DNA of 64,000 nucleotides from Eledone cirrhosa (taxonomy: Eukaryota): NCBI GenBank assembly GCA_964016885.1, contig OZ024741.1, positions 387,686,001 through 387,750,000 of the forward strand, given 5' to 3'. Shown here in pieces: positions 5,001 to 54,869 of the stretch. The stretch's first letter is position 1. Each line of letters begins with the position of its first letter. A program made the position numbers and the translations under genes. The notes under the pieces were generated by a model. It saw only the letters and a program-made list of their open reading frames with translations, had not been told where the DNA came from and made no database searches.

Positions 5001-8000
5001 CAACATACAGGAGTTTCTCAGTTCTGACCTGAAAGACAATGATGATCAGAAGTGGATTTATGACAGTCTTGGTAGACCCCACTTGCATGTCAAATTTATC
5101 ATTATACTTGTTGCCAATCCCGATCTTGCTGGTTGCACCTCTGTGCATGACTTCCTTAGCATCCATCAAATTACAGAGCAGGGGAACCTGGCAAAAGCTT
5201 TCTCTAGATCCACAATTACCAGGTAGAGAGCTCACTCTTAGCAAAGTACTTCTTTTGCAGTTGACTCACAAGGAAGAGGACATTGGTAGTACTCCTACCT
5301 GGCATAAAGCTGAATTACATTGCATATAGCTTAATTCTGCCCTAATTATTTGTGCTATAACCCTTTCAGTCACTTTTATGATCTGCTCCATCAACTTGAT
5401 GCCTCTATAGTTATTTCTCTCAGGTGTCTGTCCTTTGCCTTTGTAACAGTTTAGAATAATATTGTTGCACCAGTCATTGTTTATGACACCATCTTGTACT
5501 ACTTGATTATTTACATATCCGACACGCTTGTAACCTATCATGCTGAATGTTATTTACCTTCATATCCATTATTGCTTTGTCTATAACACTGTTGACTTTT
5601 ATGGTTGGTTCCTCAGTTGGGTCTACATGGGGTAGGCCCTCACTATCCCCTTATTTTCTTCATTCTGTAAGAGTTTTATGCCTACAGTTTCTTATGTGTA
5701 TGTGTATGTATGTGTGCATGTATACAAAAGAGTGGAAAATAAACATTAAACAGTGGAAGGAAGCTGCTGTAGAGGAAGACCAAGGAAGACCTGGATTGAA
5801 ATGGTGAGAGCTGATCTCAGATTGTTAAAGCTCACGGAGGAGATGATGACAAAGGAACACAACAAATGTAGAGATGCTGTACTGAGAAGGACTCCATCCT
5901 GCCTCTGCAAATGTGGAACAGTGGATGATGATATACAATATTATATATATATAATCCTGTGAAAGTTCTTGGTATTTCATATTATTTCTTTATGTTTCAG
6001 ATTCTAATGGCAAAGGTTTCACAACGACTGAAGACACAGATATCCTTTTGGATTCACCAGAATCATTCAAGATGTCTGAGAAATTTGAAAGTTCCTGCAA
6101 GAATGTCTCAAGTGATTCTGATTCTGACATGCAGTCTTTGTCTAGCAGTGGCATGGAATCATTCGGCTCTGATGATATGATGTATCCTCTCTTTGTTTGC
6201 TTCACTTGTACCATCAAACAAAACTCTGATTCTCATCACAGAATTGTGAGCACTCTTCCCACATGTCTGGGTAAGGTTTCTTTCTAAGGTGTCTTAGAGT
6301 TAATGACTTGACAGTTCTTATAACATTAGATTAAATGCCTTAAGAAAGAAGAGATGTATTTTATTGATCTCCATTTCATTGAACCACAGGTTTTGATGTA
6401 GTGTCAAAATTACACATACACACACACTCTCTCTCTCTCACCCGTCTACCAAATTTCCCTCAGGGTATAGTGGAAACAATAGCCCAAGGTGCCATGTAAT
6501 GGGACTGAACTCAGAACCATGTTGTTATGGAGTGAACATCTTAACCACGCCATTATTTCTATGCTTTACATGTTTTTCTTGTTTTTATTCATCATCATCA
6601 TCATCATCATTGTTTAACGTCTATCTTCCACGCTAGCATGGGTTTAGACGGGAATTGTCCCACGTGAGGCAAAATTGGTTGTCTTGCTCGTATAGGACTG
6701 TATGGCGGGTTTTCTACGACTGGATGCCCTTCCTAACACCAACCAGTCATTAGAATGTTGGATAGAGTGCCTTGTGGTATTTGTTCTGGCTCTCTATGCT
6801 CTCTGAGTTCAAATCCCAATGTGGTCAATAAAAAAAAAAGTACCAGTAAAATACTAGGGTAGATTCTTCCTCTATATCTCTTTCCCACTTCCATTCTTTC
6901 ACTCTCTCTATCCTTCTCTGGAACAAATCTGATGTATTCAAACCTGGAGAAGGAAGGGCTCTGCCAGGCTTAAAAAATGCCAAATGTCAATATGGTGCCC
7001 ATATGACTCCATCAGGACTTATGCTGCCATATCACTAAATATTTGTTGACAATAATTTCTGTTTCCTATTGTGTTATAGCCTCAAATGAGGGTGTGAAAG
7101 TTTTGAAGGCTTCCAAGGTTTTCTATAATTAGCCATATAACTTACACAGTTAAAATGTTTTATATTTTCACAGCCGAAATAACCAGTCACCTTACCGATA
7201 AACTAAATGAACTTGATTTCAAAAACTTGAAAGTGACCTTTGATTTCTACTGCTTAACATTGCGTGTAGATCTGGATCAATACCATGATAAGCCATCAAA
7301 GCCAGACAACAGATCTGTCTATTCTGAGACTGAGGAGGATTCTTGTTTAAAAGGGTATGTTATGGAATTCTATTGATATATCTACATACACATATTCTTT
7401 TATTGTTATTCTTTAACTTGCTTCAGTCATTAGACAGCAGCCATGCTGGGGATTTAGTCTTGAAAGTGGATTAGTCAATATGGACCCTAAGTACTTATTT
7501 TTAAAATCTGGTACATATCTTATGAATCTCTTTTTGTCAAGCTGCTAAGTTACAGGACAGGCACTCACATGATCGCATATATACACATGCACACACACAC
7601 ACAGTGGGATTCCACACAGTTTCTGTTTACCAATTTTCACTCACAAGGCATTGGTCTACCCAAGGTTATAGCAGAAAATCTTGCTCAAGCTGCCATGTAG
7701 TAGGGCTGTACCTGGAACCACATTATTGTAAAGTGAGCTCCTTAACCTAGCAGTCATATATATAGCTACAGCAGTACATATTCTAAAATTGGAATGATAC
7801 AGAGAAGATTAGCATGGCCTCTGCGCAAGGATGACACGCAAATTCGTGAAGCGTTCCATATTTTTATGGAGGCACATGGCTTAGTGGTTAGAGCATTGGC
7901 CTTGCAATCGAAAGGTTGTGAGTTCAATTCTCAGACCGGGTGATGTGTTGTTTCCTTGAGCAAGACACTTTATTTCACATTGCTCCAGTTTACTCAGCTG

Positions 8001-11000
8001 TAGAAATGAGATGATAGGACTGGGGTCCCTATCATTTCACTGCAAAGTGGTTGTGGAGATGCCACAGCAAAAAAGCACCCAGCCCACACTGTAAAGTGGA
8101 CGTGTAAGCGCCACGGAAAAAAAAGCACCCAGCATTCACTGTAAATGAGGTTGGTGTTAGGAAGGGCATCCAGCTGTAGAAATCAAGCTAGGAATCAGTT
8201 CCTGTCCCACCCTTGCAAGCAGGGAAAAGCGGACGTAAAAATGATGATGATATATATATATATAAAATTCTATGTGTACTTAGCTTAATTGTTATAAATT
8301 AATGTTTTGTCTCTCGTCTCTTACTCCACTGCACAGCGTTTGGCTTCTGTCAGACACTGTGACCTTGGGTGGGCCAGCAGTACCATTGGTAGGGGTCGAA
8401 ATTCTGAAAGTCCACCTCAACAGCTGATGACCCTGGAGCTCTGTGCCTTTCATTTGTATTTTTATTATTTTTAGATAATTTTTTAAGGTTTCCCCTTATA
8501 TAATAGAAATAAGATTTAGCTTCAAGCATAGATGTATACAGATATGTATACAAATTTCATATTTCTAAAGAAACATGGTATGTTTACAGGGTAAGCATTT
8601 AAGAAGCCATAGCTATGCAAACACCAGGGCTAACGCCCTCTGGTGGTGTCCAACAGAAGCAAGGGGGACAACCGTCTATGCATTTCAGACTTGACTGGTC
8701 TTCATCAGGACAGTCTCTCCCACGCTTGCAACTGCTGAATTTGAGAACAGTCGAGAATATGTAGTTTTCTCGTCTGTAAGTGAGGTGATTAATCTCATTT
8801 GTATATGAAACTGCATAAGTTGACTCAACTTATAATAGGAGGAGGCCCTTCCTAAAACCAACCACATTTACAGTGTGGGCTGGGTGCTTTTTGTTGTGAC
8901 ACCTACACGTCCACTTTACACTGTGGGTTGGGGCTTTTTGTTGTATCACCTACATGACTACTTTACAGTGTGGGCTGGGTGCGTCTTATTGTGTCACCTA
9001 CATGACTGATTTACAGTGTGGGCTGGGCGCTTTTTGTCATGTCACCATTACGCCCACTTTACAGTGTGGGCTGGGGACTTGGGGAGGTAGATCTAGGGGC
9101 ATGTATGAGGGTGGGCGGTGTGTTCAGGCATGGGTGGAGTGTTAGGACATGGGAAGTGCAAGAAGGGGAGGAATGTGGACGAGGGATGTTTGTTAGGGTG
9201 TGGAGGTGTATGAAGGGGGAGCGGGAAAGTTACTTCAACCCATGCACATGGGAAGGTGGGTCTTCTGTATTACTTTATAATAAGAGATCTCGATCTTGTC
9301 TCATCGCCTTCGAGAGGTGCAATTGTTCAAGGTCAGCTTTTATCACCTCATCCCAGGTCTTCCAACACTCTAGCTTCCATCAACCTAGAGCTACCAGCAC
9401 CTTTTTATACAGCTGTCATCCTTCATATGCATCACATGTACATACCAGTGCATTCTCCTCTCCTGCACACTGCATCTGACTCCTCTTATACCCAGGTTCT
9501 CTCTTAGTTCATTTACACTTTTTTTATTTATGTATATTACTATTTCACATACATTGAAGCATGGAAGCTTCAGTTCTTCCCAATCTTCATAGGTCCTCTG
9601 CATGCAGTGCCCAGGTTTCACTGCCATGTGACATTGTTGTTTGTATACACACATCATTCAATCTGCCCTTCATTTTGAGGGAAAAACCTTTTGTAGCTAG
9701 TAGTGGTAGTAGCTTCCTGAAATTTCTCCATCCCATTCTCACTCTAGCTACAATACTTTCAGAACATCCTCCTCTGCTGCTGATTTGTCTCCCAGGTAAT
9801 GGAAACTATCAACTACTTCTACAGAACTCTCTTGGCATTTGAAGGAGCTAGTATACTTTGGGCTCTTGCTACTTACTGCACCTGTGCAATGACCACATAT
9901 AAAACCTGCGTTCTTGGATAGCCTACCTGAAATTCCACTACATCACTCAGAACGCGGATGTAGCCATCGGTGTTCAGCTTGAGGCCCTCAGGGAAGAAGT
10001 GAGGTGGCATGACGTCACCTTGACTGCTGACGACACCTAAGACCAATGTTGTCGCTGGAAACTTTGTCTGCATGACTCTGGATGAGACACCATTCTCCTG
10101 CTGACGCTGAGAAAGTCTGAAATTTCCTTATTTGTCCTCCCGGTGCGGATTCCAAGAAGAACTTTGTGTCTCTTCCACAAATTTGGAGGTTCAAAATTAT
10201 TCATAATCAATACACATCACATACCCATACCAATTCAGTCTTCTCTCTTGTACACTTCATCTCATTGTTCTTAGTTTTTCTCTCAGTGTAAAAATTATTA
10301 AAAATGATGAATAAATAGAAAGAATTTTATAAAGAGAACTAATATTCATCCTTTGTTTGTTTCAGTTTTCAACACCATCATTTGTTTAATTGTTTACCAA
10401 AATCTTACCATGAAGCTGTAATGGATTGTAAACAGGAGGTAAATATTTAAACAAATTTTCCATTTTTGTTAAATCTTTCATTACAATATTTCTAATGAAA
10501 GACTGCTAAATCTTTCATTATAATATTTCTAAGGAAAGACTGCTAAATCTTTCATTATAATATTTCTAATGAAAGTCTGCTAAATCTTTCATTACAATAT
10601 TTCTACTGAAAGACTCTTTATTGAATCTTTCATTACAATATTTCTACTGAAAGACTCTTTATTGAATCTTTCATTACAATATTTCTACTGAAAGACTCTT
10701 TATTGAATCTTTCATTACAATATTTCTACTGAAAGACCCTTTATTGAATCTTTCATTACAATATTTCTACTGAAAGACTCTTTATTGAATCTTTCATTAC
10801 AATATTTCTACTGAAAGACTCTTTATTGAATCTTTCATTACAATATTTCTACTGAAAGACTCTTTATTAAATCTTTCATTACAATATTTCTACTGAAAGA
10901 CTCTTTATTAAATCTTTCATTACAATATTTCTACTGAAAGACTCTTTATTGAATCTTTCATTACAATATTTCTACTGAAAGACTCTTTATTAAATCTTTC

Positions 11001-14000
11001 ATTACAATATTTCTACTGAAAGACTCTTTATTGAATCTTTCATTACAATATTTCTACTGAAAGACTCTTTATTAAATCTTTCATTACAATATTTCTACTG
11101 AAAGACTCTTTATTGAATCTTTCATTACAATATTTCTACTGAAAGACTCTTTATTGAATCTTTCATTACAATATTTCTAATGAAAGACTGCTAAATCTTT
11201 CATTATAATATTTCTAAGGAAACACTGCTAAATCTTTCATTATAATATTTCTAATGAAAGTCTGCTAAATCTTTCATTACAATATTTCTAATGAAAGACT
11301 GCTAAATCTTTCATTATAATATTTCTAAGGAAAGACTGCTAAATCTTTCATTACAATATTTCTACTGAAAGACTCTTTATTGAATCTTTCATTACAATAT
11401 TTCTAATGAAAGACTGCTAAATCTTTCATTATAATATTTCTAAGGAAAGACTGCTAAATCTTTCATTATAATATTTCTAATGAAAGTCTGCTAAATCTTT
11501 CATTACAATATTTCTAATGAAAGACTGCTAAATCTTTCATTATAATATTTCTAATGAAAGTCTGCTAAATCTTTCATTACAATATTTCTACTGAAAGACT
11601 CTTTATTGAATCTTTCATTACAATATTTCTACTGAAAGACTCTTTATTGAATCTTTCATTACAATATTTCTACTGAAAGACACTTTATTGAATCTTTCAT
11701 TACAATATTTCTACTGAAAGACTCTTTATTGAATCTTTCATTACAATATTTCTACTGAAAGACTCTTTATTGAATCTTTCATTACAATATTTCTACTGAA
11801 AGACTCTTTATTAAATCTTTCATTACAATATTTCTACTGAAAGACTCTTTATTAAATCTTTCATTACAATATTTCTACTGAAAGACTCTTTATTGAATCT
11901 TTCATTACAATATTTCTACTGAAAGACTCTTTATTAAATCTTTCATTACAATATTTCTACTGAAACACTCTTTATTGAATCTTTCATTACAATATTTCTA
12001 CTGAAAGACTCTTTATTGAATCTTTCATTACAATATTTCTACTGAAAGACTCTTTATTGAATCTTTCATTACAATATTTCTACTGAAAGACTCTTTATTG
12101 AATCTTTCATTACAATATTTCTACTGAAAGACTCTTTATTAAATCTTTGATTACAATATTTCTACTGAAAGACTCTTTATTGAATCTTTCATTACAATAT
12201 TTCTACTGAAAGACTCTTTATTAAATCTTTCATTACAATATTTCTACTGAAAGACTCTTTATTGAATCTTTCATTACAATATTTCTACTGAAAGACTCTT
12301 TATTAAATCTTTCATTACAATATTTCTACTGAAAGACTCTTTATTGAATCTTTCATTACAATATTTCTACTGAAAGACTCTTTATTAAATCTTTCATTAC
12401 AATATTTCTACTGAAAGACTCTTTATTGAATCTTTCATTACAATATTTCTACTGAAAGACTCTTTATTAAATCTTTCATTACAATATTTCTACTGAAAGA
12501 CTCTTTATTGAATCTTTCATTACAATATTTCTACTGAAAGACTCTTTATTAAATCTTTCATTACAATATTTCTACTGAAAGACTCTTTATTGAATCTTTC
12601 ATTACAATATTTCTACTGAAAGACTCTTTATTGAATCTTTCATTACAATATTTCTACTGAAAGACTCTTTATTAAATCTTTCATTACAATATTTCTACTG
12701 AAAGACTCTTTATTAAATCTTTCATTACAATATTTCTACTGGAAGACTCTTTATTAAATCTTTCATTACAATATTTCTACTGAAAGACTCTTTATTAAAT
12801 CTTTCATTACAATATTTCTACTGAAAGACTCTTTATTGAATCTTTCATTACAATATTTCTACTGAAAGACTCTTTATTAAATCTTTCATTACAATATTTC
12901 TACTGAAAGACTCTTTATTAAATCTTTCATTACAATATTTCTACTGAAAGACTCTTTATTAAATCTTTCATTACAATATTTCTACTGAAAGACTCTTTAT
13001 TAAATCTTTCATTACAATATTTCTACTGAAAGACTCTTTATTAAATCTTTCATTACAATATTTCTACTGAAAGACTCTTTATTAAATCTTTCATTACAAT
13101 ATTTCTACTGAAAGACTCTTTATTAAATCTTTCATTACAATATTTCTACTGAAAGACTCTTTATTAAATCTTTCATTACAATATTTCTACTGAAAGACTC
13201 TTTATTAAATCTTTCATTACAATATTTCTACTGAAAGACTCTTTATTAAATCTTTCATTACAATATTTCTACTGAAAGACTCTTTATTAAATCTTTCATT
13301 ACAATATTTCTACTGAAAGACTCTTTATTAAATCTTTCATTACAATATTTCTACTGAAAGACTCTTTATTAAATCTTTCATTACAATATTTCTACTGAAA
13401 GACTCTTTATTAAATCTTTCATTACAATATTTCTACTGAAAGACTCTTTATTAAATCTTTCATTACAATATTTCTACTGAAAGACTCTTTATTAAATCTT
13501 TCATTACAATATTTCTACTGAAAGACTCTTTATTAAATCTTTCATTACAATATTTCTACTGAAAGACTCTTTATTAAATCTTTCATTACAATATTTCTAA
13601 TGAAAGACTCTTTATTAAATCTTTCATTACAATATTTCTATTGAAAGACTCTATATATGATTTTCAATAATTTTGAAAATAATCAAAAAATTTGAAGGAT
13701 TTGATATAAAAATCTTTTTTATTTATTCTTAAGCTGGTGTTTGAAATTTTTCTTAATTTTTTTTAAATTGATGGAAGGTTAAAATTAAATACTTAAATAT
13801 TGTTTTCAATGAATGTTATACTGCCTCGTTCTCTCCCCATCCACCACCTTGTTTACACACACACACACACACATATATATATGTGTCCACTTTCTTGTGA
13901 GGCAAATGAAGGGGAAGTACTTGGCTAAAAGCAAGCTGCTCTACCTAGCATTTATGGACCTAGAGAAAGCTTTTGACAGAGTCCCTCGATCCATAATATG

Positions 14001-23000: not shown

Positions 23001-26000
23001 CTTCAGCTACATCGACATCAGTTGCCATGACAACATCCATAGCTAAGCACTTAACTAATTCACCAGCAGCTCACCTAGCATCCAGAGCCAGACATTTTTC
23101 TGCTCCAACAGCTGCACAAAGAAACGCTATGGGTGCCTACAGTCAGCCTTCTACTATGCCTGCTACACCATCATGGATTTCTTCATGTGGTAGTTACACA
23201 GAAGAAGGTCAGACATTTTATATATTTTATTGTATGATATTTCTTCTCAATCTAATATTAGTCTATGTCTATATCTCACTTTAATTAACTCTTCTGAAAC
23301 TGTCTCTGATTCTATGATACAATACAATTTATTTTAAACTGTTCATATTTATTGAAAACCCTTCTATCATAATTTTATGTAAGAAAATTTAGTTATGCTC
23401 CAAACATCAACTTAATAATGAGAAAGTTAGTTATATCATTAAATCCTTCCAAATATAGTTCTTTCTCTGTACTTTTTCAGTATTTTTTTCTGCTAGCAAA
23501 AATAGTTTTATTTAAATTATCCTAATCAATTAAAATGAAAAAGATATTCTTTTTGTATGTTTTAGATCGAATAATAACAATATTCGATTTGTTTGCAAAC
23601 AAACAGCCTCATTACGATATGTTTTGTCAGTTGTTTCTCCCTGCCACTGCTAGAACAAAAGGATGATGATGGTCATCTAAAAAACATAGCGTAATGAAGC
23701 TGTTTGCTTGCAAACAAATCAAATATTATTATTATTTGAAATAAAACTCATAAATACATTTACGTAACCAATGTGTTAGAGCGAAAAACCAAATTCTAAT
23801 TTTGTTTTTAATTTTCAGCAAAGGCTGCCATAAAATCACTCGGTATGCAAATTAGGCTAATCAGCCAATGAATATTTTAGAGCAGGGGCGTGCAACAGGT
23901 GACCTGTGGGCCACAGTCTGGCCTGCCAGACCAGTCAGAGTGGCTTACGATTACCGTTTATAATTTTTACCTTGTATTCTTATTTAGAATTTTTTTCATA
24001 ACTGTAAAACAAATTTCTGTTAGTTGACCTATACTAAAGGGCTTCACTGATAGGGTTATGTGTGTCATAATTTCCCAGTTCCATGTTATGGAAAGAAGTT
24101 GTGGTTTTCATTAGACTACATATTTTTGACAGTGACTGGCCCTAATAGTTGTTCCAATGTTCAAAAGTGGCCCGTCAATGGAATATATTGCACACCCCTG
24201 CCTTAGAGAATACTTTATATTCTCAAGAGTTCTAATGAGTGACAGAGAAGAGAGATACACAATCTTGACAAAGGACAATAACCCAGAAACAATATTGTCG
24301 GTTGTTTCTTTGTGCCACTGCTGGAACAAAAGGATTATAATGGTGATCTAAAAAACATAGCGTAATGGGGCTGTTTGCTTGCACACAAATAGAATATTAT
24401 CATTATTTGAAATAAAACACAAATACATTTACATATCCGCTGTATTAGAGCGAAAAAGCAAATTCTAATTATTTTTTTCTTTTGCTCTCATTTCTTTGTA
24501 ATTAATATTTGAGGTAAAATATCCAACATATTCCATGACGATCCCAAGGAATGCGCAGAACTCATTGCTGAGTGCTATGCAAGTATTTTTACTGTTGAAA
24601 ACCAGAATGTACCATCTCCACCATCTCTAACATCAAATTCCATAACAACTATGGAATTTACACCTGCAATGTTGCGACGTCACCTTAAGAATAAGCGCAA
24701 CTATGCCTCCCCTGGTCTTGATGGTGTGACATACCTGCTTCTCAAACGTGGCGGGGATTTCCTTTTGCGCCAGCTTTCTTTTTTCTTTCAATACTGTCTC
24801 AGCAATGGTGCTACTCCAGAGCAGTGGAAAACTGCCAGTGTCATTCCCCTGTTCAAAAAGGGCAACCGCATGTCACCTGTCAACTATCGTCCAGTCAGTC
24901 TTACTAGCTGTATGGCCAAACTGATGGAATCCTGTGTCAGAGAAACACTTTGGAACTTCTGGAGCTCTCACAGCCTCATCCGGCCCTCACAGTTTGGATT
25001 TATCCCTAACTCCAGCTGCTGTGATCAGCTTATCGAGTTCCTTGAGGACATCACCCGGATCACTGACAGCGGCTCATGGGTGGATGTTGTTTACCTTGAC
25101 TTTGCTAAGGCTTTTAATTCTGTGCCACACAAAAGACTTATGGCAAAACTCTCTGCAATGGGTGTGAGGGATGATCTTTTCGACTGGCTGAAATCCTTCA
25201 TTCTCAGCCGAAAAGAAGTAGTCACAGTTCTAGGACAGCATTCTTCACCATATGAGATGTCATCTGGTGTACCACAGGGATCTGTTCTTGGTCCTCTTTT
25301 GTTTGTGGCATATATTAATGACATAGATGCCAACTTACAGAATGCCACGGTACTAAAATATGCAGATGACATCAAGCTGTACCTTGAAATCAAAAGGACT
25401 GATCCTGAAATTTACAACTCTTTCCTACAATCAGACCTGGACACAATGCAGCAATGGATCACAGACTGGCAACTGAAGCTGGCTGTGGACAAGTGTACCA
25501 CCATGCATTTTGGAAGGAAAAATCCAGCGTCCACATACTCCCTCCACAACACTGACATCAAAAAGTCCTCTTGTGAACGTGACCTGGGCATTACTGTCAG
25601 CAACGATTTGCGTTGGACAAAGCATGTCTCTAAGATTGTCAAGAAGGCCGAGGGTGTCTTGGCATCACTCAGCAAGACCTTTGTTAGCCGCTCTCCAGCC
25701 ATCTATTTAAAACTGTATACAGCTATGGTGCGACCACACTTGGAATTCGCATCATCAGTCTGGAACCCCTATCTTGCTTGGAACATTGACCTCCTGGAAA
25801 CTGTTCAGAGACGTGCAACCAAGCGCATACCCTCCATCAGACACCTACCATACTCTGAACGCCTTGCTTCCCTGGGCATGGATTCATTGAAGCTCCGACG
25901 TCTGGCAGTGGAGTTGGTGAATACCCACAAAGTTTTTAACCATCTCGCCAACTGCAACCCTGAGCGCCTATTTGATCTCCATGTATCTAACACACGTGGA

Positions 26001-29000
26001 CATGCCTACAAGATAAGAAAACAGCACAGCTCCCATGACTTTCGCAGACATTTTTTCACGCTCAGAGTTGCTGAAACATGGAACAAACTGCCTGCGTCAA
26101 TTGTTAGCTGCCGAGACACTGCATCCTTTAAGACACTCATGCTTCCCGAAATACGCCAAAACTACACCTGATGTGCCCCTTCCATACACATGCACACATG
26201 TGTGCACTGTTCATTTTACTGATGTTTGTGCATTGCCCTATGTACTGTACATGCACTTTTTTGATGGGTTGTGGTGCACCTGGGCACTGTGCACAATATT
26301 TCATTATTGTTATTGTTATTATATCATGACTCATACACTGTTTATTTTCCTGACATTTGTACATTATTCTATGTACTATACATGCACCTTTGATGAGTTG
26401 TAGTGCACCTGAGCACTGTACACAATAATTTCATTATTATTATTATAATGTTGTAAAACATAATTTTACAGCTGGTTATGAAGGGGACTCAAGCGACTCT
26501 AACAATGATGATGGAGCTTTCTTTAACGACACTGGTGGACAACGAGCCTCCATGCCAAACTTTTGGTTAATATTACGTGTTGAAGCTAAAAAAGTCACAA
26601 TATATTATCACTCCAGGTAAGTGGCAATACAGATTAATATTGAGTATTACATTTCAAATGTTAGTAGATTCTAATAATTTCTGGTGAAATAACCTTATCA
26701 CAAGGCTCGGCTGAAAAGTTCATAGGCTGACCAAGATACTCTCATAGAATGAGCAAATGAGGTTTATTTTTCAACATAGTCCCTGTAAAGAAGCAATGCA
26801 GTTATTAATAAGGAGAGTTGAAATTAATACATGCAAGATTCCACAGCTCTAGCATCACTCCTTCATAGTCAACCTATGAACTTTTCAGCTGACCTTCGTA
26901 AGGTCATGAGTTAGATTCCTGGTGGCACATTGTGTCCTTGAGCAAGACACTTTATTTCACATTCTTCAGTCTGCATAGTTGGCAAAACTGAATTGTACCT
27001 GTAATTCAAAGGACCAACGTTATATGTACTTCCCTGGCATTTGTGTATTATTCTATGTACTATATTGACGAGTTGTAGTGCACCTGAGCACTTTACACAA
27101 TAATTTCATTATTATTATTATTATATGCTGTGTCATCCTGAAGCACCCAAAGTAAGAACTATGTTAAGGATGCACATATTTGTGGAATGCTCAGCCACTT
27201 AGCATGTTAATTCCATGAGCAAGCTGTTTCATTATTCCTAAAACACCCACCACTCACCCTCAATGTTAAATAGTTTGTTTGGCGTTAAATGAGGTTTTAA
27301 GCTTGCCTAGGGGTGTATCATCATCAAATAACCTTATCATGAAAAACAAAAACAAAACAAAAGTAGAACAAACAAAACATTGGTACAGGCAGGGCCGGAT
27401 TTATTGGGGGGGGGGGGGATAATGTGATGAATGCCCTGGGCACCCCTTGTCAATCAGAGCCCCCTCCCCCTATCAGAACTGCTCAAACCTGAAATGCTCT
27501 GGGCACCCTAATGTCTAAATGTGACCCTGGGTACAGGCATAGCTGTGTTGAGGGGGTAACTTCACAACCACATAGTTTTGAGTTCATTCCCATGTTGCAA
27601 CTTAAGCAAGTGTCTTCTACTACAGTTTTAGGCTGAACAATGCTTTCTGAGTGAAATTTGGTAAACAAAACTGCAGAAGCCTTTGTATATATTATATATG
27701 TGTCTATGTTTACGTTTGTGTCTGTATCTGTGTCCCTTAACTTAGAAAAAGAGATTGATAAAACATCATTCAATGACTGCTTTCTCTGCTAGCAAGGTTT
27801 GGATGGGTCTACATAGACCAAATCAATACTGAAGCGGGGCTACTGACCTCCCAGACAAGCCAAAGTGTCTACATCCTGTTTACATATGGTCATACATTCT
27901 ATCAAATGCAGAGAAGTTGTGTCTTTTGACACAATTCAAGGTTCCTCTAAACCCCTTGTTTGGAAAATTTTCGACGGTTGGATGCTCTTCCTAACTCCAA
28001 CCACTTTACACCATAATAAAAAAAAAAAATTAGTACAGTTGAAAAAATGAGGATGGCAATGATGTTATACATAAGTAGTGAAATATTTTCCCTTTCATAT
28101 TGGTTTTGTAATTTCAGTCAATATTGCTGTTTTATTTTTATTTTCCATCTTATTAATTTTTTTCTCTCTCTTGTCTTACAGGAAATACAAAGATGTGTGT
28201 GTCAACCCGAATGTAAAGCAATTAGTGACCGATGTCAGTGAGATTGTCATGGATACCTGCAAGCGAGTCAACCAAGTCAGTTGAAATTTGGTTTTATTTA
28301 TACACTAATATCTGCAATTTTTGTTAGGTGAAGTCATGTCAGGCTTCAGCTTGCCACTGGTAGCATGTAACCCAGTACAACTGGCTTGATGAGGAGGGTA
28401 AGTGAAATCCCAGCAGCCCAAAAAACAAAAGGTGTTAAAATGGTGGATGAACTCCTCAGAGTCAATGGCCATTCACCCCAACTTTGGGTTAAATAGCCTC
28501 ACCAAACCACAATTGGCCAAGTATGGTGAGTACGGCTACACCTCTGACTTGACCAAAACCAAACAGAAAAGCAATGGAGGTCAACCAGGGAGGAGTTCCT
28601 CCAACAGGAGTGAGAAGGCCCTGGATTGGATTGGATATTTATTTTGCATTGAAAACCTTTTAGAAATTATTTACTGTTGAATGTGAAGGCATGTGGTTTA
28701 GTGGTTAGAGTGTTTGGCTCACAATCTTAAGGTAAATTGGTGGTAAATTGTCCTTGAGCAAGACACTTTATTTTACATTGCTCCAGTCCACATAGCTGGC
28801 AAAACTGAATTGTATCTGTAATTCAAAGGACCAACATTGTCATACACTGTGCCATGCTGAAGCACCCTAAGTAAGAACTATGTTAAGGATGCATATATTT
28901 GAGGAATGCTCAGCCACTTGGCGTGTTAATTTCATGAGCAAGCTGTTTCATTGTTGAAACAACTAGAACACTCTTCATTAAAACTGAGGGAGGTCCAAAA

Positions 29001-41398: not shown

Positions 41399-44300
41399 GA
41401 ATATTCTTGCGTTTAGGACTATGCAAGCAGTGAACATCAAGAATTAAAAGAAAACCAAGTGTTTCTCTATCACCGACCAAGTTCCTCAGGTAGCAAAGGT
41501 GAGTACATTTGTTATTGCTACTATTGTTATTGTTGTTAAGCAAAGTTTTTTTTTTATCAAAGATGTTCCAGTTGTAACCATAGTTATTTTTGGGGGGTTT
41601 TTGTTTTGTCAGTGTCTTCAATGAAATTATCTAATGTCCCTTCATTTTTTAACATAGGTTTAAATATGATTTGGCTGCTATTACTAGTATGTCAAGTGAC
41701 CACGTAGTGTCCTCATTGCTTTGCATAGTAAGTTGTAGTTGTTATTGATCAGTCCTGCTTGAGCAGACATGTATAAAAGCTATTCCAGCTGTGACTGGAC
41801 TATTACCTTCTTAGACAATATCATCTACTTTGTAGTATTTATGTTTGCTGGAATCTTTCACAGTAGTAATTTATTTTAAAAAACAGGAAAGGAAAAGAAC
41901 TAATTGTTAGATCGAACCAAGGAAACAATGTTTCCATTGGTTTTTCCACTGCTGGTACTGATTGTTGGTCGCAACTCCTGCCAGAAAGAGAAACATGAAA
42001 TAAAGTATTTTTCTCAGGCATGTAACATGCTGCACAATCCTGGATTTAAACCCACAACCTTATGATCATTATAAGTCCAGTACCCTAACCACTGTACAAT
42101 GCACCTTCACAAGTGTTTTTTAAGTAGCTGGGACAAAACATTTTTCATTCTTTTCATTGTATTTGAGAATTTTTTTTTTTAATTTACAGTTTTTGAAAAA
42201 AAATATGTTGTCTTTTATTTGTTGAAAGTAGATTTTGTTTCTTGGATGTTACAGAGTGATTATGGGAAACTGGGGTAGGTTTTCATCTCTTTAATTATGG
42301 CAAGTCTTTTTGAGATGTTGAATTATGCATGAAGTTGATTTTTATGTCTTAAATTTATATGTTTAATTTCTCCTTTAGGAATTGCATGTATAGCAATGGC
42401 ATTTGTTGATGAACATGAACAAGAAATCAAATTTAATGGATGCCAAAAACCTCTGCCGCTTGTTTCTGATGAAATGGTTCCACCTGAAAAGTATCCTTCC
42501 CTCATAGAGACAGAACGACTTGAAAAGTTACCAGCACCAAGATCTGGTTTGTTTTTACTTATGTTTGATTCTAGTTATCAGTTACCAGGCATTGTCTTAG
42601 AAAATGATGGTTTCTGACATTGGCACTAGGCCAACAATTTTGGGGAGGGAAAAGTTGATTTAATTGACTCCAGTACCTTACTGCTACTTTATTTTATCAA
42701 CCCTGTAAGGATGAAGGGCAAAGTTAATCTCGGTGGGATTTGAACTCAGAACGTAAAGGGACATAACTCTATGCTGCAAAGCATGATGTCTGACACTCTA
42801 CCGATACTGCCAATCCACCACCCTCTAATATTATAACTTAAAATATGGTTCTTGTTATCCTGCTATCATATTGAATGATATCAATTTATATAAGAATCAT
42901 TTGAAATGGGTGGTTTTCTTTCATAGAACCAGGGCCAGTTTTGGCTGGGATGGTATCAAAAGGGTTAAGGCAGTGTTTTACAACCAGATGCCTTTCCTGA
43001 TGCCAGCCCTTATTTTGTTTTTAAAGGGTGATTACTTATTCCACTGATCTTCACCTATTGGACTGCTATGTTACAGGACATGTCACCATTTTTTTAAAGA
43101 TGTGGCAATGTGAAGAGGTGCAGAGACAAACAGACATACACATATGTGAAGATGTGCAGAGACAAACATATATATACACATATGTGAAGAGGTGCAGAGA
43201 TGAACAGACATATACATATATGAAGAGGTGCAGAGATAAACAGACATATACATATATGAAGAGGTGCAGATATAAACAGACATATACATATGTGAAGAGG
43301 TGCAGAGATAAACAGACATATACATATATGAAGAGGTGCAGAGATGAACAGACATATACATATATGAAGAGGTGCAGAGATAAACAGACATATACATATA
43401 TGAAGAGGTGCAGAGATAAACAGACATATACATATATGAAGAGGTGCAGAGATAAACAGACATATACATATGTGAAGAGGTGCAGAGATAAACAGACATA
43501 TACATATATGAAGAGGTGCAGAGATAAACAGACATATACATATATGAAGAGGTGCAGAGATAAACAGACATATACATATGTGAAGAGGTGCAGAGATAAA
43601 CAGACATATACATATATGAAGAGGTGCAGAGATAAACAGACATATACATATGTGAAGAGGTGCAGAGATAAACAGACATATACATATGTGAAGAGGTGCA
43701 GAGATAAACAGACATATACATATGTGAAGAGGTGCAGAGATAAACAGACATATACATATGTGAAAAGGTGCAGAGATGAACAGACATATACATATATGAA
43801 GAGGTGCAGAGATAAACAGACATATACATATATGAAGAGGTGCAGAGATAAACAGACATATACATATGTGAAGAGGTGCAGAGATAAACAGACATATACA
43901 TATGTGAAAAGGTGCAGAGATGAACAGGCATATACATATGTGAAAAGGTGCAGAGATGAACAGACATATACATATGTGAAGAGGTGCAGAGATAAACAGA
44001 CATATACATATGTGAAAAGGTGCAGAGATAAACAGACATATACATATGTGAAAAGGTGCAGAGATGAACAGACATATACATATGTGAAGAGGTGCAGAGA
44101 TAAACAGATATATACATATGTGAAAAGGTGCAGAGATGAACAGACATATACATATGTGAAAAGGTGCAGAGATGAACAGACATATACATATGTGAAAAGG
44201 TGCAGAGATGAACAGGCATATACACATATGCAAAACAAATGTTAACCCTAGCTATGGTAGAAGACTTATGCCTAAGAGGACACATTCTGGTTTTGAATTT

Positions 44301-47300: not shown

Positions 47301-50300
47301 GGCTAATGTATCTCAGCAAATTCTGTAAATATCAGTGAGAAAACTAAATGACTTGAAATCTTAGTTTAGAAAGAGAACAATTTATACCAACTGTGTTAGT
47401 GCTGAAAGTTTGAAATTCAAATTTTTTTTTTCAATACTAATGTATGTAATAAAGTCGTTAAATTTTCATATTAGTCAGAGAAAATGAAGAGAAATTACAA
47501 GTTGCTTCCCGAAAGTTAACTATTCAGTCCAAGACGTCTGCTAAAACCCTTTTTAAGGATAAATCTAAACCACCGATTGCAACTCCTTCCTCAAAAGAAA
47601 ATACAAAGGTAAATAATACAAATTTGTTGAGATTCTAAAAGTGAATTAAAATTCAGGGTGTTTAATAAATGACTATCATTTAAGAATTCTTTTTGTTACC
47701 AAAATATTTTTTTCTATTTTTTTTTCCACCCATGTAAAGGGGTCAGAGACTTCCTGGAATACATCAGTTAGCAGTAACGAGAGCCCAAGTTCTCAGTATA
47801 GTAGCTTTCAGCACAAGAGCAAAGATCAACCTCACATGTTCTTTCAATATGAAAGTGGCGAGAAAGGTTTTCTTCACCCAGTATTTTGGACATCTCTTCC
47901 ACACTGGTTAGATTTCTGCGTTAATTCATGTAAGTATTCTTTATTTACTCTTATTTATTCCATTTTTATATGAAATAGAATTTGAATAATGTGCATTGAC
48001 AAAGTTCTGGGAATTTAGTGACATGTTAATGAGGAGGGGAATGTCACTGAAACTGAAGGGAAAAGTAGAAGTACCATGATTTATAGGAGCAAGACATGAG
48101 TTAGACATGGGTGATGAATGTGGAGCTGCAGAGAAGGTTGGAAAGAAGGGAAGGGAAAGGTGTATGCTACATGTGTGAGAAGTACCATCAGATAATGGAA
48201 CAGAGGCCTCTGTCAAAAGCTTTCCTCTGGTCCATAAAAGCCAAGTGTAGGGGTTTACTTTAAGCTAGGTACTTCTTCAGCAGTTGCCTCACAAAGAAGA
48301 GAGCCTCTGTGGTACTTTTATCTGGCACAAACCCGAACTGCATCTCATTTAGGTTACCTCAGTCTCTGATCAGCTGTGTTATAACTCTTTCTGTGGCCAT
48401 CATGATCTGGTCAATCAACCTGATGCTTCTATAGTTTTCTCTGTGTAGGGCATCTCCTTTGCCCTTGTAGCAGTTGACGATGATGCTGCTATGCCAGTCA
48501 TTGGGTATGACACCATTAGATATATGTAGATACATATAATGGGCTTATGTAGTTTCTGTCTTCTAAATTACACTCACAAGGTGTTAGTGAACACAAGGTT
48601 ATAGTAAAAGACACATGCAGGATTGAACCCAGAATAAACTGGTTCTGAAGCGAACTCATTAACTACTCAGCCATAACTGCATTTTTTTTTATGATGTATG
48701 TAATTATAAATACTCTGTTATTGACAACAATATTCCATTGTTACTAGTCACAACCTTTTGGTTATGCCCATGCTGGAACACCACCATCAACTTAAATATA
48801 GTCTGAATCAACAAGATTCCAGACCTCATTTTCTTGTGTGGAACTCATCACATCGGACCAAGGAAATAATTGGTCTTTCCAATTGCTAATACTATCTACC
48901 AGTTGCAACTCCTGACAGAAATAGCAATGTGAAATAAAGTGTATTGATCAAGGACATAATGCATCACCCAGCCCAGGAATTGAACTCACAACCACATGAT
49001 TGTAGATCTAACACTCTAACTACTAAGCCATATGTGAAGGCACCAACTTATACACATTGTGAAAATCACTCATACATGTGACTGCAAAGCAAACACCAAA
49101 TGTTTGTTGTTACTTTGTAACTGTATATGTGTATTGCTAATCTGACATAAAAGGTTATTTGGTATTAACTATATGAATAGTTAATACCAAATACTTAAAA
49201 ATAAAAGGGCCACTGAATAATATAATAATAATGAAATTATTGTGTACAGTGCTCAGGTGCACAACAACTCGTCAAAGGTGCATGTATAGTACATAGAATA
49301 CTATACAAATGTCAGGGAAGTGAATAGTGTATGAGTCATGATATACATGTGTGCGTGTGTATGGAGGGGGAATATTAGGTGTAGTGTTGGCGAATCTCAG
49401 GAAGCATGGAGGTTTTAAAGGATGCAGTGTCTCGACAGCTAACAACTGATGCAGGTAGTTTGTTCCATGCTTCAGCAACTCTGAGCGTGAAAAAATGTTT
49501 CCAAACTCATGGGAACTGTGCTATTTTCTGACTTTGTGGGCATGCCCACATGTGTTAGACACATGGAAATCAAAAAGGTACTCAGGATTGTTGTTGGCAA
49601 GATGGTTAGTAATTTTGTGGGTGTTTACCAAGTCAGTTGCCAGACGGAGCTTCAATGTATCCATGCCCAGGGAAGCAAGGCGTTCAGAGTATGGTAGATG
49701 CCTGATGGAGGGTATTCGCTTGGTTGCACGTCTCTGAACAGTTTCCAGGCGGTCAATGTTCTGAGCAAGATAGGGGTTCCAGACCGGTGATGCAAATTCT
49801 AAGTGTGGCCGCACCATAGCTATATACAGCTTTAAATAGATAGCTGGAGAGCGACTGACAAAGGTCTTGCTGAGTGATGCTAAGACACCCTCAGCCTTCT
49901 TGACAATTTTAGAGACGTGCTTCGTCCAACACAAATCGCTGCTGACCGTAATGCCCAGGTCACATTCACAAGAAGACTTCTTGATATTAGTGTTGTGGAG
50001 GGAGTATGTGGATACTGGGTTTTTACTCCCAAAATGCATAGTGGTACACTTGTCCACAGCTAGCTTGAGTTGCCAGTCTGTGATCCATTGCTGCATTGTG
50101 TCCAGGTCAGATTGCAGGCAAGCATAGTTCAGAAATGTAATCCCTATTTATTTTACACATGAATATATGCAAACCAGACTTTATGCACTTCTAACACAAG
50201 ATTGTCATGAACACCTATATGTTTCTGTACCACAAAATAAACAAAAGCCAAGCATGTGTGTTGACATATATATGTGTGTGTATATATATATCATCATCAC

Positions 50301-53300
50301 TATTAATGTCTATTTTCCTATATAATATATATATATATATAAAAAAAGATGAAATCGAAAATGCAACTGGAGTCTTATTTTTAAAAAAATATATATATTT
50401 ATTTGGTTCCTTTACCGGTTTCGCAGTTCTTCTGCTTTTCAAAAGTAGAGTTGAGATGGAGGGTCTGTGGTTTTTCTCACATCTGGTTGGTCTCTGAATG
50501 TTACTTATTTTATATGGAAAAAGTGGCTCGAAATGCCTAATCAACATATGGACTCAAAAGCTCACAGCCCGCAAATTGGCCCTTTGGAATCTCCTAAAAA
50601 ATAATGGCAAGGCAGACATATATGAAAAGTGGCTAAACTCTACCCCAATCATCCTCCCCAAAAAACTCCAAATAAAACCCATCCCGAATGAACGAGAAAA
50701 CCAACAAAGACTTAGGGAAAAGATGGTGTTAGAAAAATTTAAAATAGAAATAGAACTGTTGCGATTAAGAGCCAACTCCAACGAAGAAAAATTCAAGTCA
50801 CTCGACCAACAGATGGACACAGAAATCTCAAAGCACTCTGAAGGCCTACTCTACGAAAAAACCTTAAAACTTTGGAAAGAAAACTGTGAGGATGAAGAAC
50901 TAACATCCCTCCAGCGATGGGAAAAAAACGCCACCTGGTTCAACAACTACGAAATGGACTTCAAAAATAAACAACATACAGGTAACCCATTTTTAAAACA
51001 AACTAAAACTCACACACTACATGCACAACAAATAACAAAAAAAGTAACAAAACGTTCAACATACCCCCAGCAAAACTATAACGATAATCCCAGAAACCAT
51101 AGACAAAACTATAACCCTACTAACAAAAACCAAAGAGCCCCGAACACAAGGCAGGACCCGATCCGCAGATCACAACCCACACAAAACCTATTCCAAAACC
51201 GTAGACCCCTGCCCACACAGAGCCTGTTCCAAAACCGTAGATCCCAACCCACACAGGAACAAAATCTACAACCCGGACTATCAACAAACTGAACCTCAAT
51301 ACGTCCGAAACTTCTATACAAGACCACACAACAACAGGGGAAATACCATTAGATATAATAATACCATTGAAAAAACATTCCAGAAAAATCATTTTTAGAC
51401 CAAGGCTACAGGACCCACGACACCCGGTGGCACAAACCGATTTTGAAAAACCGAAAATAATTAACCTTTCAAATACAAACCTCTCAGCCCAACAAGTAAA
51501 AATTCTCTCCAAGGGACTGAAATTCACACCAACACCACAATACTCTAACCCCAATGAGATAAATGACGATATCTCACACTTCTGTAGAAAATTACGTCTC
51601 ACAGAGGAATTCTTTGACAAGGAGAATAACGACGAATCAATTGTACGGAATAAAAGCAGCTACAACCCAACAAAAGGTAGAAACAGAGTTCTGGACAAAT
51701 TTTGTGACCACATAGCTACTTTCCCATACCATGAACTACCGCAACCTAAACCCAAACCCAACACGAGTCGAAGGGAATGGGAGATTATCCATGAACTAAA
51801 AAACAATACGGACATTATAGTTAAGGAAGCGGACAAGGGAAGTACTGTTGTCATTATGGAGGCTGAAAAATATAAAAATTCTATGTTCTCTCTCTTACAA
51901 AATACTAATTACTATGAAAGAGTAAAAAACTACCAGCAATCAAAAACAATGACCAGATTAAACACACTGATTTATCGATACCAGGAAGAGCTAACTAAAA
52001 AGGAACGCGATTATTTAATACATTTTGAATACAAAACCAGCAACCTTTACGGACTTCCGAAGATCCACAAGTGTAAAATAATTAACGATGCCTGTAAACA
52101 ATCCACCTCAGCCTGCGTGAACACACAATACCCCAGAGACCTTAAATTAAGACCAATTGTAGCAGGCCCACAATGTGAAACACACAGACTGAGCAACTTT
52201 ATAGACATACTACTAAAACCAATTCTCAAACACATACCAAGCCTTGTAAGAGACGATCTGGACCTCTTAAACCACCTCCCCAAACATGTCAACAACGACA
52301 CTATTATTGTGCCTTTCGATGTAGTGAATCTCTACACAACGATCCCACACCAATACGGACTAGAAGCAATAGGATTCTGGCTAAAGAAATATCCCAATGA
52401 GATACCTGGCAGAATAGAAAAAAGCTTCATCACCGAGGGATTAAAATTCATCTTACAGAACAACTTTTTTGATTTCGATGGCAGTACTTACAAGCAAATA
52501 TCGGGAAGTGCGATGGGTACAAAAGCCGCTCCAACTTATGCCAACTTAGTCATGGCATACTTAGAAGTCCAGATATATGAACAGTCCAAATCAAAATACG
52601 GATTGAACTTCCACAAATATTTATCAGAGAATTGGAAACGCTACTTGGATGATTGTCTCATTCTTTGGTCCCACACAATCGACCTACTGAAGGATTTCAA
52701 AAACTTAATAAACGGCATCAATAACCACATCCAATTCACAATGGAATACAGCCAAGATCAACTCCCATTTCTGGACATCTTAATCTTAAAAAAAGACACA
52801 AATATTGAAACTGACATACACTACAAACCAACAGATTCCAAACAATACCTGCTATTCACCTCCAACCATCCAAAGCACACGAAGACGAACATTCCTTTTA
52901 ACCTAGCAAGAAGAATTTGCACAATTGTCTCCAATTATGAAACGCGAAATAAAAGACTTCAAGAATTAAAGGAAATTCTATTCGAAAGAGAGTACCCACT
53001 ATTACTAATAAATAATGGAATAGAAAGGGCTAAAGCAATAGGCATTGATGAATTACGAAAACAGAAACAAATTCAAGGTACGTCCAATATTCTATCATAT
53101 ATCTCAACACACAACCCAAGAAATGCGGAAGCTTACAACACTATTCACAAGAACATCCCACTACTAAAACAAAACCCAAGAATGAAAAAAGCCCTTGAAA
53201 CACACAAAATAATCAAAAGCAAAAGACAACCGAAATCACTGAAAACATTACTCACCAATGCCAAATTACCTACCACAAACCCATAACCAACTGTCAAAAA

Positions 53301-54869
53301 ATGTGGTCACTCTAATTGTGGAACCTGCACTCACCTCATTGAAGGCAACACGTATACATTTAAATCAGGACAAAATTTTACTGTAAAAAATCACTTCACT
53401 TGCTCATCAAAAAATCTACTTTATGCCATTAAATGTAAAGGATGCAATGAAGATTATATAGGACAAACTAAACTCACACTCAGAAACAGAATGACAGTTC
53501 ATCGCCAACAATTATGAGATCCAACCACGAGACAGATACCACTAAGCGCAAATCTAGACATATGCGCAAGTAATAAGACACCCAAATTCCAAGTCTTCCC
53601 ATTTTACCTTTGCGCTAACAATACAACAGAACAAATACGAATAAATAAGGAAAATATGTTTATTCAAAAATATAGACCAGCATTAAATATGGTTTAATAT
53701 GTCAACACCATAACATGCTAACCATCCAAACAGACACATACACACACACACATAACACCTGCTACTTTAGAAAATAAAAACCCGAACTAAATAAACCTTA
53801 ACATACGTTTGCACTGACAATACAACAGAACAAATACGAATAAGTAAGGAAAATATGTTCATTCAAAAATATTCCTACTAAAGGAATCATTTTCCTACAC
53901 ACACACACACACAAACAATATATATATATTATCTTCATCTTAACATGTTAACCATACTCCCACACACATAACACCCATACACACACATAACAACCCCCAC
54001 CCCCACACACAACTCCCTCCCCATTTCTACTAATAGAATCACTTTCCTACACATATATACACACACAAAATATATATATTCTCTCCATCTTAACATACTC
54101 CCACACACACACACATAACATGCATATACACACACACAACTCACTCCCCCATTTCTACTAATAGAATCATCTTCCAATACACACACACACACACACACAA
54201 GCACACAAATAAACATACATATCTTTACTTTCTTTATTCAATAGAAAATTTGAATTCTGACACCCCAGCGAACTAACCATATTAACTGAACCAGAACAAT
54301 TCTCCCATCCAATTTCTCTTGACCATTATCTTTTACTTGTCATAAAATTCTCTAAAAAGGCTACAGAATAGATTTCCAAATAAGGGCGCGGAAATTTAAT
54401 GAAAACTTGTTCACGTGACAGCCATAATTTCATTTATAACCAATCAAATTACGTTTATTTAAAAAAAGCCTTCGTGAGCCCCCTTTTTTTTTAAGTAAAA
54501 AGAAATTCAAACACTCGTATATAAAAAAACAACCTGTGAACCCCCCCCTGTTTGAAGAACTTTGTAACGCGACCAACCAGATGTGAGAAAAACCAGATGT
54601 GAGAAAAACCACAGACCCATCTCAACTCTACTTTTGAAAAGCAGAAGAACTGCGAAACCGGTAAAGGAACCAAATAAATATATATGTTTTTTTTAAAATA
54701 AGACTCTAGTTGCATTTTCGATTTCATCTTTTTTTCTTTATACTTTCACTCGTGTAGGACACCTCGGTTATTTTTCATTTTGTAAAAAAAACCTCACTTT
54801 CTAATATATATATATATATATATGTTCCACCCTTGCAAGCAGGGAAAAGCGGATGAAAAATGATGATGA

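Follow-up and report, generated by a model that had tools for sequence, protein, structure and literature searches.

Organization of the U6-SINE copy

The 64-kb window analyzed here is a stretch of 64,000 nucleotides of the Eledone cirrhosa genome (assembly GCA_964016885.1, contig OZ024741.1, positions 387,686,001 to 387,750,000 of the forward strand). At 7756-8264 it carries a retrocopy of the U6 small nuclear RNA (snRNA) joined directly to a complete tRNA-derived short interspersed element (SINE). From its 5' end the unit comprises, on the plus strand throughout, a TA run (7756-7764), the U6 retrocopy (7763-7865), the SINE head and body (7866-8037), a segment common to the SINE and the 3' untranslated region (UTR) of a reverse transcriptase (RT)-encoding, RTE-like long interspersed element (LINE; 8038-8202), a terminal tail (8204-8249) and a second TA run (8250-8264). 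The two TA runs, identified from the sequence and by a scan for target-site duplications (TSDs) in which the 5' run was a TA-only match, represent the target site or a candidate TSD.

Rfam assigns 7760-7865 to U6 with a score of 99 bits and an E value of 1.8e-24, and U6 is the sole family at gathering score in the 64-kb window. Compared with a copy of the genome's own U6 gene (L005), the segment 7763-7865 matches nucleotides 5-107 with three substitutions, at 7770, 7795 and 7820. The preliminary description of the locus was thus right that U6 is nearly complete, but the match starts at 7763 rather than 7765 and lacks the first four nucleotides. No U6 promoter precedes the copy, and the upstream sequence shows no similarity to the upstream region of the clustered U6 genes described below. 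The five-T 3' end of mature U6 (7861-7865) forms the left side of the seam and abuts the SINE start at 7866 with zero spacer, exactly as had been described; it is also the sole T run of four or more inside the whole unit. The final two nucleotides of the 5' TA run coincide with U6 nucleotides 5 and 6, a microhomology.

The SINE contains an A box (7877-7887) and a B box (7920-7929). Together with its short length, high copy number and a tail common to a LINE, these are the features of a SINE2-type element; ARAGORN found no true tRNA in it. The first two letters, A and T, are present in 76% and 88% of the U6-free family copies (n = 33), respectively, and position 7866 is therefore the normal 5' end of the family. 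Copies at 2907, 19516 and 28683, previously cited for the same start, do begin at about this point but belong to related, different subfamilies. The 3' half of the SINE matches the LINE at 93% over 165 nucleotides, within which lies an array of a ~48-bp repeat (8038-8153), and then at 77% over the last 48, closing with (ATG)3 at 8241-8249. Both the LINE-family tail with its (ATG)n end and the TA repeats around the whole unit, as initially noted, are borne out.

The partner LINE has an RT open reading frame (ORF) upstream of the shared tail (Pfam RVT_1, E value 7.8e-29). We provisionally assign the LINE to the RTE clade from C-terminal motifs and its (ATG)n end. A PHD finger (Pfam E value 9e-7) immediately follows the RT domain in the ORF at L196:2073-3038 on the minus strand.

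U6 genes and dispersed U6 ends

True U6 genes form a tandem cluster on contig C19 (31778865-31840355; L005-L021 and L024-L030) of about 30 or more genes with ~1.8-kb spacing, a common upstream region and a TATA-like element near -30. One type of unit in the cluster has a SINE just upstream, which replaces the usual upstream region.

The genome-wide census was anchored on the exact 16-letter U6 3' end, which misses mutated ends (e.g. L002) and forces an intact 3' end on every entry. Of the 126 matches to this anchor (control, 1), 30 lie in the gene cluster and the remaining 96 are dispersed. Manual sorting showed that 76 of the 96 dispersed ends join a recognisable repeat, with 20 left without an assigned partner. 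The partners are a ~65-nucleotide tail element (27 ends), the SINE family of the window (4), another tRNA-SINE (9), other SINE heads (4), fragments carrying the RTE-like tail (10), repeats that contain a hammerhead (14, and 3 more with a partial motif) and two other repeats (5). The U6 5' ends range from nucleotide 1 to 89, with 37 of the 96 starting at or before nucleotide 12. The preliminary description had proposed a junction search in which varied partners after U6 would signify ligation or template-switch chimeras, and such variety was found.

The ~65-nucleotide element (L033, L043, L164-L193) consists of the LINE/SINE tail only and has at least 1,422 exact matches, mostly with one 5' start. 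Its 27 U6 fusions are far more per copy than those of the SINE (4 per at least 12,097).

Forty-nine of the 96 dispersed ends entered a TSD test. A duplication of at least 7 nucleotides surrounds the whole U6-partner unit in 17 of these 49, whereas 2000 shuffles gave 7.1 on average and 14 at most. Duplications that are not TA-only number 9, against 2.3 (maximum 8) after shuffling, and several are unambiguous non-TA duplications of 8-16 nucleotides. None of the four U6-bearing copies of the window's SINE family has a second U6 3' end beyond the SINE tail. Because whole-unit duplications exceed chance and the U6 end is not repeated after the tail, a single chimeric insertion is the rule for the class and the best reading at the window locus. 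This agrees with the original proposal that U6 was joined to a complete SINE in one chimeric insertion, likely mobilised by the RTE-like LINE. At 7756-8264 itself a TSD is compatible with the sequence but unproven, because the TA runs are indistinguishable from a TA microsatellite target.

Penelope-type repeats with hammerhead motifs

Hammerhead cleavage leaves a 5'-OH end. Hammerhead motifs were sought with a descriptor of our own, comprising a C3-G8 or U3-A8 core, helix II, GAAA, a short helix III and a UH site. The descriptor was matched at sister chimeras of the window copy, with two families reading GCAA for GAAA in the copies examined. U6 ends at, or 1 nucleotide from, the predicted cleavage site in L058, L063, L065, L073, L074, L077, L078, L081, L087, L094, L096, L098 and L133, and several of these fusions lie within inverted duplications. 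The U3-A8 pattern has 18,215 matches in the genome and 0 in the control. A stricter first descriptor matched 1 seam and the canonical C3-G8 pattern gave 3 genome matches; both results are explained by the U3-A8 variant. An Rfam E-value scan of 12 loci returned microRNA noise, with no hammerhead among the best 150 of 191 rows.

A sixth family (L034, L053, L178) exhibits GAAAC, a palindromic helix III and GUC at the U6 junction, with no core upstream among the 100 matches listed. This GAAAC-helix III-GUC repeat has 24,014 pattern matches. It may be completed by splicing, or it may represent a different motif, and its three ends were kept out of the tests described below.

The window itself contains a Penelope-like element at 50413-54663. 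Its RT ORF (51241-53286; RVT_1 E value 3.7e-5, under the Pfam cut-off) is followed by a broken GIY-YIG-like stretch (53287-53697) and flanked by U3-A8 hammerheads at 50413-50442 (minus strand) and 54634-54663 (plus strand). A GIY-YIG match, also under the Pfam cut-off (E value 7.5e-4), was obtained at L168.

Literature searches, with most subscription journals and supplements outside their scope, returned no described U6-Penelope chimera, and a term search of a 2026 retrozyme preprint gave no mention of snRNA or RtcB. The U6-Penelope fusions are likely new.

Seams differ between classes of partner

Seams were tabulated for 58 of the 96 dispersed ends. A clean seam was defined, post hoc, as five bases (at least four of them T) with partner-templated sequence directly after them. 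L094, a hammerhead row whose alignment was poor, was scored as ragged, and the Fisher tests excluded two inverted twins and the partial-hammerhead family. Clean seams were found at 10 of 13 hammerhead sites, compared with 3 of 15 SINE starts (p = 0.007) and 5 of 26 ends at the ~65-nucleotide tail element (p = 0.001). With the largest hammerhead family collapsed to one event, 7 of 10 are clean (p = 0.03 versus SINE starts). Age does not explain this contrast, since U6 identity is 96.5-96.7% in all three groups.

The 15 SINE-start ends join three SINE families within a few nucleotides of the element's 5' start, all in the same orientation and no more than 14 nucleotides from the U6 end; in 12 of them the T run is ragged or extra bases are present. 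Among the 41 SINE and tail-element seams, 12 have fewer than five T's in the run. The seam in the window is located at a SINE start and yet is clean, with exactly five T and zero extra base. U6 joins the partner LINE within its 3' end in five cases; every one of these seams is clean and three fall at one base. Other internal seams are mixed or ambiguous.

The three fusions at one base of the RTE-like LINE (L022, L056, L075) lie 7 nucleotides before its stop codon, and two further U6 fusions (L100, L106) fall within 40 nucleotides of the same position. A preferred RNA cleavage site near translation termination in this LINE is possible. Amplification of a master copy was considered for the three same-base fusions and rejected: the two long copies share 93% identity, which is no more than they share with plain copies, and have zero private variants in common.

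The seams suggest RNA ligation for cleaved RNAs and template jumping by RT for SINE 5' ends. Clean seams at cleavage sites are consistent with ligation, although an RT jumping from the end of a cleaved RNA would reach the same base. The contrast could also partly reflect the mobilising enzyme rather than RNA end chemistry, as the classes use different enzymes. We lean slightly toward the view that both routes to U6 chimeras operate side by side in this genome. Ligation would join U6 to 5'-OH ends, most plainly at the Penelope hammerhead sites of five or six unrelated repeat families, with the products then copied by the Penelope machinery; a jump of the LINE RT at triphosphorylated SINE 5' ends would leave the ragged seams.

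Origin of the window chimera

The promoterless U6 and the complete tRNA-SINE at 7756-8264 likely derive from one retrotransposition event driven by the RTE-like partner LINE, whose RT likely jumped from the 5' end of the SINE RNA onto the 3' end of U6 RNA. The chances for and against this account as a whole appear to us about equal. The LINE protein would bind the tail that SINE and LINE share and prime at the TA-rich target. The whole SINE RNA would then be copied, consistent with the full-length SINE at the locus. On reaching the end of the template the enzyme would jump onto U6 at its U-rich 3' end and copy all of it but the first four nucleotides, which are missing at the locus. Finally, the new end would be joined via the TA microhomology. 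The resulting copy is predicted to be dead as a unit because U6 has no internal promoter and the five T's would stop RNA polymerase III (Pol III) before the SINE.

The 5' end of a Pol III transcript, such as that predicted for the SINE, would be triphosphorylated. A 5'-triphosphate blocked ligation by RtcB (PMC6789731). RTs of elements without long terminal repeats (non-LTR) add non-templated bases and jump between templates in vitro (PMC8857657), and these activities fit the ragged SINE-start seams, in which the T run is short or long and bases have been added.

Several points weigh against a template jump at this locus, or against the single event of which it would be part. The clean window seam matches the patterns at hammerhead sites (10/13) and at LINE-internal sites (5/5), both likely ligation products. 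A longer transcript cut immediately upstream of the SINE could yield a 5'-OH end open to ligation; the SINE starts with A, and most copies lie behind TA runs. The spacers in other U6-SINE copies could be flanks of the source copy rather than non-templated bases. The duplication around the whole unit is TA-only. A search for an empty site with the downstream flank (8266-8620), itself an old repeat, matched four runs of two studies, whose contigs gave paralogues only, none spanning the site. Pfam detects only RVT_1 and PHD in the partner LINE, the RTE label coming from sequence motifs.

The strongest alternative, to which we assign a somewhat less than even chance, retains the single retrocopy and changes the order of events: U6, with a presumed 2',3'-cyclic phosphate end, would first have been ligated by RtcB to a 5'-OH SINE RNA, for example one cut from a longer transcript just before the SINE, and the LINE would then have copied the fused RNA. 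The seam of exactly five T followed by the first base of the SINE is necessary for this reading, though not sufficient. Ligation is apparently common in the genome, as judged from the clean seams at hammerhead and partner-LINE sites, and in human extracts RtcB can ligate U6 to any RNA with a 5'-OH (PMC6789731). However, native SINE transcripts are predicted to bear a 5'-triphosphate, and the ragged SINE-start seams and short T runs enumerated above also count against this reading.

Two independent insertions, with the SINE integrating precisely behind the 3' end of a pre-existing U6 retrocopy, are very unlikely. The SINE family is large (at least 12,097 copies) and favours AT-rich targets, the TSD at the window locus is uninformative, and in a loose junction search five further SINE matches shared 10-11 nucleotides with the U6 end, which looks like chance. 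In contrast, the TSD scan showed no duplication around the SINE alone, whole-unit TSDs are above chance, and all 15 SINE-start cases are uniform in orientation and close in spacing. U6 (97% identity) and the SINE (97% to the family majority) are, moreover, equally diverged.

Relationship of the U6-bearing SINE copies

The preliminary description had envisaged a U6-headed SINE family. Such a family would descend from a master U6-SINE fusion through transcription and amplification. A search of 3.0 Gb found the exact junction a single time. A junction pattern allowing up to 4 extra bases adds one locus, and one allowing 16 bases gives 9 matches, 4 of them with real U6 (at least 33 nucleotides); the other five, the chance-like matches mentioned above, were not counted. 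Exact matches to the SINE head number at least 12,097 genome-wide, so that U6-free copies exceed U6-bearing ones by at least 3000 to 1.

The four U6-bearing copies begin at U6 nucleotides 5, 1, 73 and 69, and their spacers, seams and internal repeat structures all differ. SINE identity among them is 0.92-0.96, no higher than to plain copies. On a 31-row SINE tree, which is star-like, the U6 label requires 4 changes, and none of 200 bootstrap trees grouped the four copies. Of 30 plain copies, 27 were retained as rows, those dropped being one inverted copy, one with another tail and one duplicate. Counting against independent origins, a one-clade test made on an earlier alignment in which two rows were truncated failed to reject common descent (p-AU 0.2). 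The tree alone is insufficient against common descent, and therefore the differing seams carry the argument.

An amplified family thus retains in its favour the existence of four copies and the p-AU value. It is opposed by four distinct seams, by the internal repeat structures, identities and tree placements given above, and by the absence of an internal promoter from U6 (PMC4494074, PMC6789731). It is largely refuted, and we regard it as less probable still than two separate insertions. The window chimera did not found a family; many U6 fusions arose independently in the genome, and it is one of them.

Co-transcription of the SINE from a genuine U6 gene upstream, also raised at the outset, is refuted and retains next to no probability: U6 is nearly full length, but nucleotides 1-4 are missing, three substitutions are present, no upstream sequence is held in common with the cluster genes, and the five T's would terminate Pol III.

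Other features of the window

RT-like ORFs of another LINE family are located at 24513-26171 (552 amino acids) and 49521-50147 (a 208-amino-acid 3' piece). Minisatellite arrays occupy 10465-13656 (41 bp x 79) and 43108-44224 (36 bp x 31).

Comparison with known systems and implications

U6 has been found joined to SINEs in platypus, anole and opossum, and also to L2 and RTE LINEs (PMC4476161). These U6-SINE and U6-L2/RTE pseudogenes (platypus Mon-1; anole AnolisSINE2 and RTEX-2; opossum RTESINE1; Doucet et al. 2015, PMC4476161) have an intact U6 3' end, are often 5'-truncated and are fused in the sense orientation with a SINE or a LINE from a stringent non-L1 clade, as here. Their TSDs are short or unclear, as at the window locus, and they represent single events, as is likely here. 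The window copy shows the features of their 'Repeat' group: an intact U6 3' end, an orientation in sense with the retroelement 3' portion, no U6 promoter and a 5'-truncated U6. It differs from the vertebrate chimeras in its invertebrate host, a likely octopus to judge from SINE motifs, and in the Penelope-type repeats found among the partners in its genome. Here U6 joins a complete SINE at the SINE's 5' start; section 10 of PMC4476161 leaves the completeness of the vertebrate SINEs unstated.

U6/L1 chimeras made through RNA ligation by RtcB (Moldovan et al. 2019, PMC6789731) likewise have the mature U6 T run followed by the first base of the partner. They differ from the window copy, whose partner is a Pol III SINE start with a predicted 5'-triphosphate, whose partner LINE is other than L1 and which lacks a poly(A) tail. 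SINEU, the U1/U2-headed crocodilian retroposons (Kojima 2015, PMC4494074), resemble the window copy in having an snRNA-derived 5' part on a short retroposon. They are, however, amplified families with shared structure, whereas the great excess of U6-free copies reported above is Kojima's criterion for independent chimeras. The minimal hammerheads described from Penelope-like elements (Cervera and de la Pena 2014, PMC4209133), with a minimal core, a palindromic helix III, the U3-A8 variant and opposite-strand pairs, resemble the sister chimeras only, and the accessible text of that paper makes no mention of fusion to U6.

A literature search for U6 snRNA pseudogenes with retrotransposons in cephalopods found none, most subscription journals and supplements being outside its scope. 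The window locus is a well-preserved U6-SINE chimeric retrocopy of a known kind, an ordinary fossil in a new host group. More weight rests on the genome-wide contrast in seams and on the U6 fusions at hammerhead sites than on this locus. RNA ligation and template switching are still presented as alternatives for U6 chimeras (PMC11838501), and have been tested in human L1. This genome makes the question testable, as the 5'-end chemistry of the partners is predictable (ribozyme 5'-OH versus Pol III triphosphate) and the seams differ accordingly. The set of seams would, if the reading given here is true, indicate indirectly that the weak minimal hammerheads carried by Penelope elements do cleave in vivo. 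Should both routes indeed operate in this genome, U6 would be a natural tag of ribozyme cleavage in vivo, and of other 5'-OH RNA ends in the germ line, for which the window locus provides one data point.

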